A DNA stretch of 64,000 bases from Eubacteriales bacterium (lineage in GTDB: Bacteria; Bacillota; Clostridia; Lachnospirales; Lachnospiraceae): positions 361 to 64,360 of the forward strand of contig JAUNPS010000026.1 in the NCBI GenBank assembly GCA_030536575.1, written 5' to 3'. The position numbers and the translations under genes are program-made. Position 1 is the first letter of the stretch; each line of letters opens with the position of its first letter. The notes beneath the pieces were generated by a model. The model had not been told where the DNA came from and did no database searches. It was given only the letters and a program-made list of their open reading frames with translations. This document shows positions 3,001 through 19,224 of this stretch, one piece after another.

Positions 3001-6000
3001 TGCGGCAGAGGGCGCAGTATATGAATACCGACTGGATGAAGACGGCAAGTGGCAGGAGAGCAACATATTCACAGGGCTTATGCCAAACACCAGCCATACC
3101 TTCTACGCACGGATTGCAGAAACGACCAACTACGAAGCGGGAACGGCAGGAACGGTAAGTGTGACATTACCGCGTCTGCCAGGCGCGGCTTCGGTGACCA
3201 TGGAAAACTGGACATACGGCGAGACAGCCAATGCCCCGATCCCGGTTTCAGGCACCAACGGCATGCAGAATGTAACGTATCAGTATAAAAAGCAAGGCGC
3301 AGATGACAGTATGTATACGGCAGATGTACCAACAGACGCAGGGGCATATACCGTTCGGGCAGATTTTGCCGCAACAAATGCATACGAAGCAGTACAGGCT
3401 ACAGCAGACTTTACAATTTTCCAGAAGGAGCTGGAACTGACGCTTTCCGGCACGGCAGAAAAGACATATGACGGAACAACGGATGTGAATGGAATTTCGA
3501 TATTCTGTTCAGGTATTCTGGAAAAAGACGCAGGGCAGGTGACGGCAAGCTTCACGATTGCATACGACAGCGCGAATGCTGGAAGCCAAACCATTTCCAT
3601 CAGCGAAAGTTCTCTCACCGGAGACCGGTCGGGCAACTACAAGCTGCCCGATCCATTGACAACCTTTACCGGAACGATAAATCCGCTCGACCTTTCTGAC
3701 AGCAAGTACAGCACAGAAATTATGCTGACAGACGGAACACTGATTTATAACGGCGAGACGCAGATCCAGGAAGTGAAAAGCGTCACGGTAAGTTGGGCCG
3801 ACGGACAGGATACAAAGACATTGACCTTAATCGCCGGGAAGGATTACGTAATCAGCGGAAATCAGAAGCTTGATGCTGGTGAATATGAACTGACGATTAC
3901 TGGCACGGGGACTGATACGAGCGGCAATTATATCGGCTCAGTAAGTGAAATCTGGAAGATCGCGAAACGTCCTGTGACGGTGACTCCAGAAAGTAATCAA
4001 AGCAAGGCCTATGGGGAAGCAGACTCGCCCTTGGCTTATACGATTACGGAGGGTGAGCTGGCAGGAAGCGACACGCTGAATGGCGCGCTTTCCAGGGATT
4101 CGGGTGAAAATGCAGGTATGTATCAGATTACGCAGGGCACCCTGACAAACGAAAACAATCCGAATTACGATATTACGTTTGCAGATTCTGTTTCGTTTAC
4201 GATTGCAGAGAAATCCCTTGCGGGCGCTCAGGTATCGGTCAGCGGAAGCTTTACGTATGACGGAACAGAGCAGAAGCCGGAGCCTGTCGTAACGCTGGAC
4301 GGCGCGGTACTTGTGAAGGATCGCGATTATACAGTGAGCTACACGGACAATGTGAATGCAGGCAATGCGACAGTCACAGTGACCGGTATCGGAAATTATA
4401 CCGAAACAGCAAGCACTGCCTTTGCGATTCAAAAAGCAATTATCACCGATATTTCCGGCACAACCAACAACGTAACAACCCCGGAAGCGCTGGCATCGTT
4501 ACAGAAGACAATCACAGACGGCAGCAATTATACGGCATCGATCACGTGGAAATGCGGCAGCGAGAGCTACGAAGCAGATACGTATGGCTTTGGAGCAGAG
4601 TATACGGCAGTATTGACGCTGACACCGGACAGTAACCACCGGTTCGCGAATGCGGACGAACTTGCCGGAATCGTCGGCTGTACTGTGACAGGAAATGGAA
4701 GCACGGGTGATTCGGAAGAAATTATTGCGCTGACATTGGAGCGTACCTTCCCGGCAACACGCCTTGAAAAGCTTGTGAGCGCTGCAACTCCGGGAGAGAC
4801 GGCGTCAGAGAGTGTAACGCTGGACGCGCATATGGCGGATGCGGATGCAGTCATCAAAACACTGCCAAGTACCGTGAAGATAACATTGGAAACAGGAATC
4901 ACCGTAGAGGTTTCTGTTACGTGGAGCTGTGACAATTATAGTACGGAGCCGAATGCAGAGAATACCTTTACCTGGACGGTTACGTCCAGTGCGATCGACG
5001 GATTGTATGATCAGAACGGAGTGCCCCTGACTGGAACCATCACCGTTACAAACTCGGATTCCCAGACTGTGACAATCACGGGAGAAGACCAGACGGTTGT
5101 TTACGACGGAAATGAGATTGATCTGAACGGCCTGTTTACAATTGATGAAAATGCCGGAGCAGCGACGTACCTTGTGGAAAACGGTTCCGGAGAAGGCATG
5201 CAGACCGGCAGCGGGAATACGCTGAAAGTTACAAAAGCAGGCACCTTTACGATCACCGTGCAGACAGACGCTGCAGGCATTTACGGAGCGGGAAAAGCAC
5301 AGATCATCCTGACTGTGCGTAAAGGAAATGGAAATGCATCGGTGACGATCAGCGGATGGACTTACGGAGAGGATGCACAGACACCAGTTTCCGAAAGCAG
5401 CACAAATGGCACGGATGCGGTAACTTATCTCTATGAGTCGACAGATGGCAAGGGATACAGCAGCGAGACGGCACCTGTCAATGCAGGCAGCTACAAGGTA
5501 ACGGCAACATTTGCAGCGACAGACCTATATGAGAGCTGTACAGCGGAAACGAATTTGGACGTAGCCCCAAGAGCAATCACCGTAACGGCAGATGACCAGA
5601 CGAAGGAAAGCGGCGATGTAGACCCGGCGTTCACGTACCAGATCACGGACGGAACACTGGCGGACGGCGATACGTTGACCGGAATCACATTCAGCCGCGA
5701 GACAGGCGAAGACGCAGGAGAGTATGCAATCACCGTTTCACAGGAAGACGGAGCGAATCCGAATTACGCGATCACATTCGTAAATGGAAAGCTGACAATC
5801 CAAGCGGCCGAAACAGATGAGACCGACGAAACCGATGAGCCAAGCAAAGCTGGCAGCTCCGACAAAAATTCCGGAGGCTCGAAGGGGAATTCTGATAAGA
5901 AGTCGGGCAATTCCGAAAAAACTTCCGACAAGAAGTCAGACGCTTCCGCAAAAACCGGCGACCCCACCAACCTGTGGCTGTGGGTTATGATGCTGGCCGT

Positions 6001-17084: not shown

Positions 17085-17930
17085 TTACTGGCAGAAGGTT
17101 TCCAGCTCCTTAATGCGCTTCAAGGCGTCTTTTCGGCCCAGCTTGTAGACGGCTTTCAGTTTTTCAGGGTCTTTTTCTCTTGCGCCCACTTCCAGGGCTT
17201 TGCTGGGGCGCATCACCAGAATTTCTCCGGTGCGTTCTCTTGCGGCTATGTAATCCAGCGTTTCATTGTAGCGAATATGGCGGTCGGCTACGGCCTGGAC
17301 GGCTTTCGGATAGCTGCGCAGGGCGGCACGGATGATGGGGAGCATGGAATTTTTCTGTTTTACGAAGCCTTTGGGCTGGGTCAGGATCACGATGTTGTGG
17401 GTATATCCGAGGCTTTCGAAATAGCGGATGGGGATGGAATCGGCAATGCCGCCGTCTAAAAGGGCATAATTGCCGATGTGCACGATGCGGGAGACAACGG
17501 GCATGGAGGCGGATGCGCGCATCCATTGTAAGTCTTCCGGGCCGCCGGTTTCGCATTTGTGATAAACGGGTTTTCCTGTCCGGATGTCCGTACAAGTAAC
17601 GTAAAATTCCATCGGGGAATTTTGAAAGGTGACGGTGTCGAAGGGGTCGAGGGTTTCGGGAATGTCGTGGTAGCAGAACTGTTCGCCGTAGAGGTCGCCT
17701 GTTTTGATAAGGGAGCGGAAGCTGGCGTAGCGGGGGTCGCGGCAGAAGCGGAGGTTGTAGCGAATGGTTCTGCCGGGTTGGTGGGATTTGTAGTTGCAGC
17801 CGAAGACGGCGCCGGCGGATACGCCGATGGCGCCGTCTACTTTGAGATTGTGTTCCATCATAACGTCGGTGACGCCGGCGGTGTATAAACCGCGCATGGC
17901 GCCGCCTTCCATAATTAAACCGGTCTTCAT
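17085..17930 (-). CDS. Patatin-like phospholipase family protein
   Basis: EGGAMRG oxyanion hole, GVSAG nucleophile elbow, LDGG catalytic Asp; promoter TTGCAT-17-TACAAT upstream. Confidence 0.92.
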   Translation of the reverse strand: MKTGLIMEGGAMRGLYTAGVTDVMMEHNLKVDGAIGVSAGAVFGCNYKSHQPGRTIRYNLRFCRDPRYASFRSLIKTGDLYGEQFCYHDIPETLDPFDTVTFQNSPMEFYVTCTDIRTGKPVYHKCETGGPEDLQWMRASASMPVVSRIVHIGNYALLDGGIADSIPIRYFESLGYTHNIVILTQPKGFVKQKNSMLPIIRAALRSYPKAVQAVADRHIRYNETLDYIAARERTGEILVMRPSKALEVGAREKDPEKLKAVYKLGRKDALKRIKELETFCQ

Positions 17931-18158
17931 TGATGACTCCTTTTGCCTTGGGGCATGTTTTGTGATGGAATGATTGTAGCACCGGAATGGATGGAATGCA
18001 AGCTTCCGGTGTTTGGGCGCTGTGCGGATTCATCCGAGGCGGGAATTTGGCATTCTATTCCAACGCAGCATTCATTCGTATGGATTCATTCTGTAAGCAT
18101 TACTCTGTTAAATTGCCGAGCTTGATTAAAAAAATATAAATTTAAGCAAAAAAGTATA

Positions 18159-18187
18159 TTGCAAAATGGAGACGCATATGCTATAAT
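18159..18187 (+). promoter_or_regulatory. Sigma70 promoter of antitoxin RNA 1 (repeated at 18572-18600 and 18979-19007)
   Basis: TTGCAA-17 nt-TATAAT with extended TG, conserved in all three units. Confidence 0.85.
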
Positions 18188-18193
18188 GTCAAC

Positions 18194-18270
18194 TGACAAT
18201 GAAGGAAAAGATAAGAATTACTCCATGTAGACAACAGTGAAAACCCCGGAGCCGACACTCTGGGGTTTTC
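18194..18270 (+). ncRNA. Predicted antitoxin sRNA 1 (RNAII-like)
   Basis: Short promoter-to-terminator unit with no plausible ORF. Carries ATGAAGGAAA and TACTCCATGTAGACA blocks that recur in the toxin-1 start region. The 5' end is estimated from promoter spacing. Confidence 0.7.
18240..18269. terminator. Bidirectional terminator shared by toxin mRNA and antitoxin (also 18647-18676, 19054-19083)
   Basis: AAAACCCCGGAG-loop-CTC(T/C)GGGGTTTT, with A4 and T4 flanks on both sides. Confidence 0.88.
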
Positions 18271-18323
18271 TATGCCTAATTTTTGGAAACGGAAAGGCGT
18301 TGGTTCCGCAGGCTGGTTACCGA

Positions 18324-18410
18324 TCAGTTATCGCCGTCCAGCCATTTGCTGATGAGATGACATATCACACCCGCCGCAACAGCGATTATGAAGGAAACAA
18401 TGTACTCCAT
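18324..18410 (-). CDS. Type I TA toxin, Fst/Ldr-like membrane peptide MEYIVSFIIAVAAGVICHLISKWLDGDN (28 aa)
   Basis: Translated by hand; single hydrophobic helix with AxxG motif, KWLD and charged tail; strong RBS AAGGAAGGGGGTG. Confidence 0.85.
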   Translation of the reverse strand: MEYIVSFIIAVAAGVICHLISKWLDGDN

Positions 18411-18606
18411 ATAGACACCCCCTTCCTTTTACCAGGTATCGGAGGCGGTAACAGGTAAATTATATCATATCATTCGTCAAAATTCTATATATTTTTTGTT
18501 AAAGCAAATTTTAAAATTGCATAAGAAGTGCGACTTGAGAAAATTATTAGAAATTTAAGCAAAAAAGTATATTGCAAAATGGAGATGCATATGCTATAAT
18601 GCCATT

Positions 18607-18677
18607 AGGCAAAAGGATACCAACAGTCCATATAATACGACAAATGAAAACCCCGGAGCTGGCACTCCGGGGTTTTC
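18607..18677 (+). ncRNA. Predicted antitoxin sRNA 2
   Basis: Promoter 18572-18600, terminator 18647-18676; AAAGGATACCAA and TCCATATAA blocks match the toxin-2 start region. Confidence 0.7.
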
Positions 18678-18730
18678 TATGCCTAATTTTCGGAAACGGA
18701 AAGGCGTTAGGTCCGCAGGCTGGTTACCGA

Positions 18731-18817
18731 CTACTTATCGCCGTCCAACCGTTTGCTAATGAGGTGGCAAACCACACCCGCCGCGACAGCGACAAGAAAG
18801 GATACCAAAGTATCCAT
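18731..18817 (-). CDS. Type I TA toxin, Fst/Ldr-like peptide MDTLVSFLVAVAAGVVCHLISKRLDGDK (28 aa)
   Basis: Translated by hand; same architecture as copy 1; RBS GGAAAGGGGGTG. Confidence 0.85.
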   Translation of the reverse strand: MDTLVSFLVAVAAGVVCHLISKRLDGDK

Positions 18818-19013
18818 ATAACACACCCCCTTTCCGTACCAAGTATCGGGGGCGGTAACAGGTAAATTATATCATATCATTCGTCAAATTTCTATATATT
18901 TTTTGTTAAAGCAAATTTTAAAATTGCATAAGAATCACGACTTAAGAAAATTATTAGAAATTTAAGCAAAAAGGCATATTGCAAAATGGAGATGCATATG
19001 CTATAATGCCATT

Positions 19014-19084
19014 AGGCAAAAGGATACCAACAGTCCATATAATACGACAAATGAAAACCCCGGAGCTGGCACTCCGGGGTTTTC
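19014..19084 (+). ncRNA. Predicted antitoxin sRNA 3
   Basis: Identical to antitoxin 2, shifted by 407 bp. Confidence 0.7.
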
Positions 19085-19137
19085 TATGCCTAATTTTCGG
19101 AAACGGAAAGGCGTTAGGTCCGCAGGCTGGTTACCGA

Positions 19138-19224
19138 CTACTTATCGCCGTCCAACCGTTTGCTAATGAGGTGGCAAACCACACCCGCCGCGACAGCGAC
19201 AAGAAAGGATACCAAAGTATCCAT
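19138..19224 (-). CDS. Type I TA toxin copy 3, identical peptide to copy 2
   Basis: Same 87-nt ORF as 18731-18817. Confidence 0.85.
   Translation of the reverse strand: MDTLVSFLVAVAAGVVCHLISKRLDGDK

Follow-up and report, generated by a model that had tools for sequence, protein, structure and literature searches.

Three probable par/Fst-type toxin-antitoxin modules in a Lachnospiraceae tandem array, with two predicted pairing specificities

INTRODUCTION

Can copies of a type I toxin-antitoxin (TA) module that lie side by side in one genome each answer to their own antisense RNA only? The question is raised by a 64,000-nucleotide (nt) stretch of contig JAUNPS010000026.1 (assembly GCA_030536575.1, a Eubacteriales bacterium of the Lachnospiraceae), which is called the window here. 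On a reading of its sequence, positions 18121-19347 form three head-to-tail units of ~410 base pairs (bp) each, in every one of which an RNA of ~75 nt, from a plus-strand promoter, and a minus-strand mRNA for a hydrophobic peptide of 28 amino acids (aa) converge on a bidirectional terminator. The toxins and RNAs of the array carry no annotation. We describe the anatomy of the units, their repeats, the predicted pairing energies and the covariation across a family of related loci. We consider it probable that 18121-19347 holds three par/Fst-type type I TA modules whose translation-blocking pairing is predicted to be class-specific, because both partners carry different block sequences in each class; unit 1 would represent class A, and units 2 and 3 class B.

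RESULTS

Repeat blocks over the toxin start codons

Two blocks in the 5' part of each antitoxin recur in the same unit over the start codon and codons 4-8 of the peptide. These direct repeats (DRa and DRb) lie as follows:

18199-18208 (antitoxin, plus strand) and 18388-18397 (toxin, minus strand, codons 5-8): DRa of unit 1, ATGAAGGAAA, identical copies
18219-18233, plus strand: DRb of unit 1, antitoxin copy, TACTCCATGTAGACA
18403-18417, minus strand: DRb of unit 1, toxin copy, TACTCCATATAGACA, covering the start codon with 6 nt before it and codons 2-3 after it
18612-18623, 18797-18808, 19019-19030 and 19204-19215: DRa of units 2/3, AAAGGATACCAA, all identical
18627-18638, 19034-19045 and 19220-19231: DRb of units 2/3, TCCATATAATAC
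18813-18824: DRb at the toxin-2 start, TCCATATAACAC, whose single T/C difference gives a U-G wobble

A repeat search recovered every block position listed in an initial annotation of the sequence. The one mismatch that it had reported in the second block of unit 1 was also found, in that TACTCCATGTAGACA and TACTCCATATAGACA agree at 14/15 positions, with G in the antitoxin against A on the plus strand (U in the toxin mRNA), giving a G-U pair. Alignment confirmed that the blocks are unlike between unit 1 and units 2/3 and matched inside each unit, and the arrangement is that of the par repeats with which they had been compared: convergent promoters, a common bidirectional terminator and two repeats read oppositely (PMC7472228).

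Pairing is predicted to span -6..+9 and +14..+23 on toxin 1 and -7..+5 and +10..+21 on toxins 2/3. The footprint covers the AUG and first codons, as had been proposed, and the start codons (CAT on the plus strand at 18408-18410, 18815-18817 and 19222-19224, read from the minus strand) are inside the second block. Duplexes between the antitoxin 5' part and the toxin initiation region had energies of -35.7 and -37.5 kcal/mol, compared with means of -17.2 and -19.4 kcal/mol (standard deviation (sd) 3.3) for dinucleotide shuffles of the antitoxin 5' part; 0/2000 shuffles reached the observed energy (z ~ -5.5).

Pairing energies within and between the classes

The energy of each antitoxin 5' part (A) against each toxin initiation region (T) was computed, and a net value was obtained by subtracting self-structure:

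A1/T1: -34.8 kcal/mol, net -25.4
A2/T2 and A3/T3: -34.0 kcal/mol, net -20.8 and -21.5
Either cross pair (unit 1 against units 2/3): -19.1 kcal/mol, net -8.8 to -9.9

The cognate and non-cognate energies of the window thus differ about two-fold, in the direction expected from the initial annotation, and on this calculation cross-reaction of copy 1 with copies 2 and 3 has probably been lost. Sequence differences between units 1 and 2 cluster in the two segments that interact (odds ratio 6.9, p = 1.3e-11): their antitoxin 5' parts share 43% identity and their toxin start regions 55%, compared with 77-95% elsewhere.

The matched blocks had been attributed to compensatory evolution. The concentration of divergence in the interacting segments and the gap between cognate and non-cognate energies across the family support this, but a part of the unit 1 change is an insertion of 7 nt rather than point-for-point covariation. 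Relative to units 2/3, antitoxin 1 has gained TGAAGGA, which gives rise to its DRa (18199-18208) and is the same as the toxin-side sequence. Beside this insertion, in the stretch 18200-18218, is an unpaired AAGATAAGAA, which resembles the DRa of four other loci (L034, L169, L171 and L122) and may, from that resemblance, be a relic of an older specificity.

A third interaction was considered, between the conserved GGCAAA of the antitoxin and UUUGCC of the Val-Cys-His codons, at which unit 1 has a matching G-to-A / C-to-U change. It was not supported beyond chance, and was dropped because the peptides in general favour TGC for Cys and GGCAAA persists in two loci that have TGT.

Covariation in homologous loci

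DNA searches found relatives with the same architecture and other block sequences, and these loci were sampled in two ways. A pattern of the conserved antitoxin promoter and leader gave 120 stretches from public genomes, nearly all of them Lachnospiraceae, from which 89 distinct complete modules were parsed (sample 1). A further 45 loci were found via the toxin peptide, and so without bias on the RNA side (sample 2). In sample 1 the mean energy was -35.9 kcal/mol (sd 4.1) for cognate pairs and -17.6 kcal/mol (sd 5.0) for non-cognate pairs; the cognate toxin was the best partner for 78/89 antitoxins and in the top three for 89/89. The corresponding means in sample 2 were -33.8 and -18.0 kcal/mol, with the cognate toxin best for 38/45. 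Co-resident paralogues in other genomes are mismatched like random pairs (mean -18 kcal/mol). The pairing footprint (-7..+5 and +10..+21, with a short gap between) is the same across the 89 homologous loci, being present in >85% of them. The covariation anticipated for homologous loci is therefore real, with energies specific to the cognate pair in both samples (89 + 45 loci): within each module, the antitoxin has stayed matched to the start region of that module.

These data bear on a quite different account, in which the direct repeats arose passively through DNA duplication or gene conversion within a unit and have no function in RNA-RNA pairing. The copies share one orientation at a distance of ~185 bp, an arrangement in which short-patch conversion could occur, and the 7-nt insertion that created DRa-1 is identical to the toxin-side sequence. 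Yet repeats are kept in 134 loci with otherwise unrelated blocks, where their footprint over the start codon never shifts, and the few mismatches between copies are transitions that still allow wobble pairing. Conversion may be how such changes arise, but what is kept is complementarity, and we regard repeats free of function as very improbable.

A same-genus relative has a degenerate module (L008 1520-1790, genome G001). Its antitoxin promoter, blocks and terminator are intact and its DRa still matches; the Shine-Dalgarno (SD) sequence and start codon of the toxin are lost, with a hairpin plus T run in their place.

Members of the family also occur on small replicons. The 5.6-kb circular plasmid LC817946 of Waltera intestinalis carries the same module (L225 870-1125) with the toxin MSIFSSFLLSVLASVVAYYICKWLDGDK and no annotation there, and the module is on ~5-kb contigs of three other Lachnospiraceae (L026, L029, L096). 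Location on plasmids of ~5 kb fits a par-like stabilizing role for at least some members.

Toxin genes and toxin mRNA structure

The features of the toxin side, all on the minus strand, are:

18324..18410: toxin 1 open reading frame (ORF), 28 aa, MEYIVSFIIAVAAGVICHLISKWLDGDN (ORF list; family profile A2; weak Pfam Fst_toxin match)
18731..18817: toxin 2 ORF, 28 aa, MDTLVSFLVAVAAGVVCHLISKRLDGDK, with toxin-side DRa at 18797-18808 and DRb at 18813-18824 (one U-G wobble)
19138..19224: toxin 3 ORF, with the same peptide as toxin 2, toxin-side DRa at 19204-19215 and DRb at 19220-19231 (perfect)
18418..18426: SD sequence of toxin 1, GGAAGGGGG, with predicted pairing to an upstream CGCCUCC tract
18446-18452: 5' end of the toxin-1 mRNA, GUUACCG, by sequence reading
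18459-18467: extended -10 box of toxin 1, TGATATAAT, by sequence reading
18866..18894: toxin-2 promoter, TAGAAA-17 nt-TATAAT with TG, a consensus match
18316..18322: CGGUAAC in the toxin-1 mRNA, 1 nt past the stop codon, complementary to the mRNA 5' end GUUACCG

Each toxin ORF is preceded by a G-rich SD sequence, a leader of ~40 nt and an extended -10 box, which for toxins 1 and 3 was read from the sequence. The peptides have a hydrophobic helix, a Trp (in KWL, with R in toxins 2/3) and a tail rich in D and K. Toxin 1 and toxin 2 peptides are absent from a collection of 15 billion proteins; a related 32-aa toxin is in that collection, without a name in any source.

Complementarity between the mRNA 5' end and the site of the stop codon (the first 7-8 nt) is also seen in units 2 and 3, and at least 7 compensatory variants of this 5'-3' helix occur across the family (e.g. 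GUUACCG/CGGUAAC, GCUACCA/UGGUAGC, GUUGUCC/GGACAAC and GUUGCUC/GAGCAAC). A Watson-Crick run of >=6 bp was found in 80% of cognate pairs versus 11.5% of non-cognate controls. In the 32-aa subfamily the partner of the 5' end falls inside codons of the C-terminal tail (..KDNK), which couples RNA structure and protein tail. In minimum free energy folds, 83-84% of SD nucleotides are predicted to be paired, for the most part with the C-rich tract that precedes them. Directed complementarity tests were used for the toxin mRNA structure in place of an RNAalifold consensus, which for 88 toxin mRNAs was uninformative; two subfamilies with different 3' parts were mixed in it. In a mouse-gut relative (L071), metatranscriptome contigs 4192-4364 and 4301-4367 fit the predicted toxin mRNA from 5' end to terminator, and its span has high depth in one metatranscriptome run (mouse gut).

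Antisense to the toxins, the plus strand has ORFs of 97 aa at 18572-18865 and 18979-19272. Their presence in the ORF list could suggest that these are the real genes and the minus-strand peptides spurious. The frame, however, is broken in unit 1 (23 + 73 aa) and crosses the terminator hairpin, and conservation in the family tracks the minus-strand peptide (KWLD motif) and not the plus frame. By these features the plus-strand ORFs are mechanical artefacts, and the reverse assignment is extremely improbable.

Antitoxin RNAs and shared terminators

The features of the antitoxin side are:

18159..18187, plus strand: antitoxin-1 promoter, TTGCAA-17 nt-TATAAT with TG extension (10/12 consensus match)
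18572-18600 and 18979-19007, plus strand: antitoxin-2 and -3 promoters, the same as that of antitoxin 1 (consensus match)
18194..18274, plus strand: predicted antitoxin RNA 1, ~80 nt, an unstructured 5' part plus terminator hairpin (5' end inferred)
18607..18681, plus strand: predicted antitoxin RNA 2, with DRa 18612-18623, DRb 18627-18638 and terminator 18646-18677
19014..19088, plus strand: predicted antitoxin RNA 3, same sequence as antitoxin 2, with DRa 19019-19030, DRb 19034-19045 and terminator 19053-19084
18239-18270, both strands: bidirectional intrinsic terminator of unit 1, 13-bp stem and loop CCGACA, common to the antitoxin and toxin transcripts

Promoter calls here are consensus matches and start sites are predicted; the antitoxin promoter is kept in homologous loci. 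About 45 nt of the antitoxin 5' part are single-stranded in the predicted fold. The three terminators (18239-18270, 18646-18677 and 19053-19084) are GC-rich hairpins of 13-14 bp with U runs on both strands, and the bidirectional terminator is the sole overlap of toxin and antitoxin RNAs, as in the definition of par.

Directly after the antitoxin -10 box is a 3+3 inverted repeat (18188-18197, 18601-18610 and 19008-19017), GCCATTAGGC in units 2/3 and GTCAACTGAC in unit 1. Among leaders ascertained through the toxin (n=65), 52 have GCC..GGC, 3 have the double change GTC..GAC (L147, L165 and unit 1 of the window) and 3 have wobble variants. It may form a 5' hairpin, act as an operator or provide start-site context.

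Family assignment and specificity weighed

Several observations weigh against the assignment to par/Fst and against separate specificities, and the first of these concern the peptide. The proline of the Fst PXXXG motif is absent from the toxins, which have Ala for Pro in the motif A-V-A-A-G-V-x-C. The Pfam family PF13955 (Fst_toxin) gave 16.3 bits against a cut-off of 36 bits, with 2/58 family members matched at all, and NCBIfam NF033608 (type_I_tox_Fst) gave 12.1 bits against 26, with 7/58 weak matches. All three toxin mRNAs align over positions 1-239 of Rfam RF02442 (SpF66), with 24.6-26.2 bits and E = 8e-4 to 2e-3, but none of them reaches its gathering score of 42. Searches for sequencing runs found none that contains this stretch; the existence of the antitoxin RNA and its 5' end are predictions from sequence, and the metatranscriptome contigs over the antitoxin of the relative L071 include promoter DNA and sum many paralogues, so that they are no proof of a small RNA.

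Other observations of this kind concern specificity. The terminators of the two classes differ at 4/33 positions (88% identity), and full-length cofolding gives terminator duplexes of 35-38 bp for every combination; this calculation is unfit as a measure of specificity, being silent on the initiation region, as the terminator and DR pairings form a pseudoknot beyond the program. Since terminators form duplexes in every combination, first contact would not be class-specific. In addition, a TCCAT core over the start codon is common to both classes, and the residual cross energy of -19 kcal/mol over this TCCAT/AUG core could, on the model, allow partial cross-repression.

On the first set of points, one could propose a harmless small membrane protein under antisense control, in which case the array would be a family of regulatory genes and not a module for addiction or stress. 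Toxicity here is a prediction and the curated Fst models lie out of reach, and for Fst/Ldr systems no deletion phenotype is known beyond loss of plasmid stability in plasmid-encoded ones (PMC7472228). However, SD sequestration, the 5'-3' helix and an antisense RNA that covers the AUG and has a near-consensus promoter are typical of toxic products, related modules are on cryptic plasmids of ~5 kb, and the same-genus L008 keeps its antitoxin beside a toxin that lacks SD and start. An Fst-B homologue of Streptococcus pneumoniae is toxic in Escherichia coli (PMC2887945). Taken together, a harmless product seems to us quite improbable. As for family membership, the SpF66 consensus encodes MSLILELVLTIIADVIAGIILYFVCKWLDGKE (...CKWLDGKE), and hhalign gave 97.8% probability to the Lachnospiraceae toxin profile; a profile search of solved structures gave no relevant match. 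Judged from sequence, the RNA-level design agrees with the definition of par and the peptide, of KWLD type, is related to Fst only distantly and escapes the curated models.

The second set of points would fit par-like TA loci that are real but whose classes are not insulated. Antitoxins 2/3, present in two copies, would then repress toxin 1, or antitoxin 1 would repress toxins 2/3, and the divergence of the blocks would be drift tolerated in a redundant array. Beyond the shared terminators and the TCCAT stretch, the tolerance of G-U pairs and a cross duplex that still has -19.1 kcal/mol at the initiation region would allow this, and cross-regulation of paralogous type I systems is documented for SprG/SprF (PMC6393307). 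Against it, unrelated family pairs and shuffles average the same -19 kcal/mol, which is therefore background, and the excess of differences in the two interacting segments is significant. There is also a precedent for insulation, in that RNA II of plasmid pAD1 does not protect against RNA I of the chromosomal paralogue EF0409 (PMC7472228). We therefore hold a lack of insulation to be rather unlikely, and prefer class-specific modules.

Under class-specific pairing, only the occlusion of the start codon would be class-specific. In par, the terminator is the site of first contact, by loop-loop kissing, and from the comparison of terminators such kissing is unlikely to discriminate between the classes. 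By eye, the toxin terminator loops UGUCGG and UGCCAG have no YUNR U-turn; the antitoxin-2 loop CUGGCA has CUGG. The YUNR motif is not present in all par homologues (PMC7472228).

Genomic setting and origin of the array

The array and its neighbours are laid out as follows:

17085-17930, minus strand: patatin-like phospholipase gene, flanking the array
18121-18533: unit 1
18534-18940: unit 2
18941-19347: unit 3
19368-20357, plus strand: EamA transporter gene, flanking the array

The host genome (~91% complete) has three copies of the module in total, all in this array. The cores of units 2 and 3 differ by one base only, and on that basis these units are a recent duplicate. The spacer after toxin 2 (18841-18940) has 95% identity to the spacer after toxin 1 (18448-18533) and 76% to that after toxin 3 (19255-19347); the core of unit 2 matches unit 3, unlike its spacer, which resembles spacer 1. 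A single tandem duplication of 'spacer 1 + class-B unit' would explain this mixed likeness.

No TA module was found in the syntenic patatin-EamA gap (~400 bp; L220 1830-2190) of the closest same-genus genome (G006), and the intergenic sequences of the window and L220 do not align. The array is thus best read as a recent gain or expansion at this site, because the closest same-genus genome has both flanking genes and no module. A synteny comparison found no flanking genes of other family loci in common with this site.

DISCUSSION

In the mechanism that we propose, the minus strand of each unit would give an mRNA of ~215 nt for a 28-aa single-helix membrane peptide with a charged tail of the KWLD type, and a stronger, convergent plus-strand promoter would give an antisense RNA of ~75-80 nt. 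The two 5' blocks of the antitoxin would pair with the mRNA from ~-7 to +5/+9 and from ~+10/+14 to +21/+23 and, by analogy with RNA I/RNA II of par, would stop access of the ribosome. Pairing of the mRNA 5' end near the stop codon and of the SD sequence with the C-rich tract may both stabilize the message and keep its translation low. Unit 1 and units 2/3 would act through different blocks in both partners. Three elements of this scheme are inferred: production of the small RNA with these ends, toxicity of the peptide and the lack of cross-protection between the classes.

A further proposal is that a specificity switch has been caught in progress. New 'addresses' would arise via short templated patches from the toxin gene and not via paired point mutations, and the near-invariant GCCnnTAGGC after the antitoxin -10 box would be a control site co-regulating all antitoxins of a cell. 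The templated origin is suggested because the insertion in antitoxin 1 matches the toxin side and stands beside an unpaired DRa-like stretch; the proposal as a whole is distinctly unlikely. If true, >130 natural cognate-specific pairs would be a model for the diversification of RNA-RNA specificity, and the family would double as a library of orthogonal antisense pairs.

The mechanism is already known: it is textbook knowledge for par, and both repeat variation with insulation of paralogues and Fst-like toxins of Clostridiales are published. Fozo et al. placed a peptide of Clostridium bolteae in their Ldr/Fst alignment (PMC2887945). The literature describes DRa/DRb as poorly conserved in par loci, and the authors of T1TAdb report that most Fst/RNA II loci are not recoverable with the expected interaction. 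Here, the family is an unusually clean data set of intermolecular covariation. The two adjoining classes, with their divergence in the interacting segments, are a natural experiment on insulation at the RNA level. The family also marks an annotation gap, as it is common in gut Lachnospiraceae and their small plasmids, yet falls below every curated model.

Among known systems, the type I toxins of Clostridioides difficile (NF047374) are likewise small clostridial membrane toxins. Weak matches to that model were found for 13/58 members (best E = 2.7e-4), but all are below its cut-off. The C. difficile antitoxins overlap their toxin transcripts differently. In Ibs/Sib, near-identical type I modules in one genome are separated by differences in antisense recognition, and Sib overlaps the whole ORF. 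The same kind of separation is described for SprA1/SprA2 (PMC6393315, for SprA2). Unlike the modules of the array, Ibs/Sib and SprA have other toxin families and another pairing geometry; here, recognition is outside the overlap region.

Streptococcal SpF66 (RF02442) is closer, since its model aligns with the toxin mRNAs end to end, including the 5' GUUACCG, the SD sequence, the part coding for KWLD and the terminator; the scores (26 bits versus a gathering score of 42) and the hosts, which belong to different bacterial classes, set it apart. The Fst-A/Fst-B genes of S. pneumoniae resemble the array in having copies in tandem (Fozo 2010, PMC2887945). As in Fst, the toxins are of ~30 aa with one hydrophobic helix, a conserved Trp and a charged tail, although AxxxG replaces PxxxG and the Pfam and NCBIfam cut-offs are not reached.

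The closest likeness is to par of Enterococcus faecalis pAD1 (RNA I/RNA II) and par-EF0409, with which the units share convergent promoters, a common bidirectional terminator and DRa/DRb pairing over the initiation region, and from which they differ in that the terminator loops of the toxins show no clear YUNR U-turn. Like par RNA I, the toxin mRNAs have a predicted SD-sequestering 5' structure (5'-SL) and a 5'-end helix (5'-UH) (PMC7472228). The pAD1 and EF0409 loci are also paralogues with different DR sequences, for which the lack of cross-protection predicted here has been shown (PMC7472228). Those two loci are divided between a plasmid and a chromosome, whereas here the two specificity classes adjoin in one tandem array of a gut Lachnospiraceae host.

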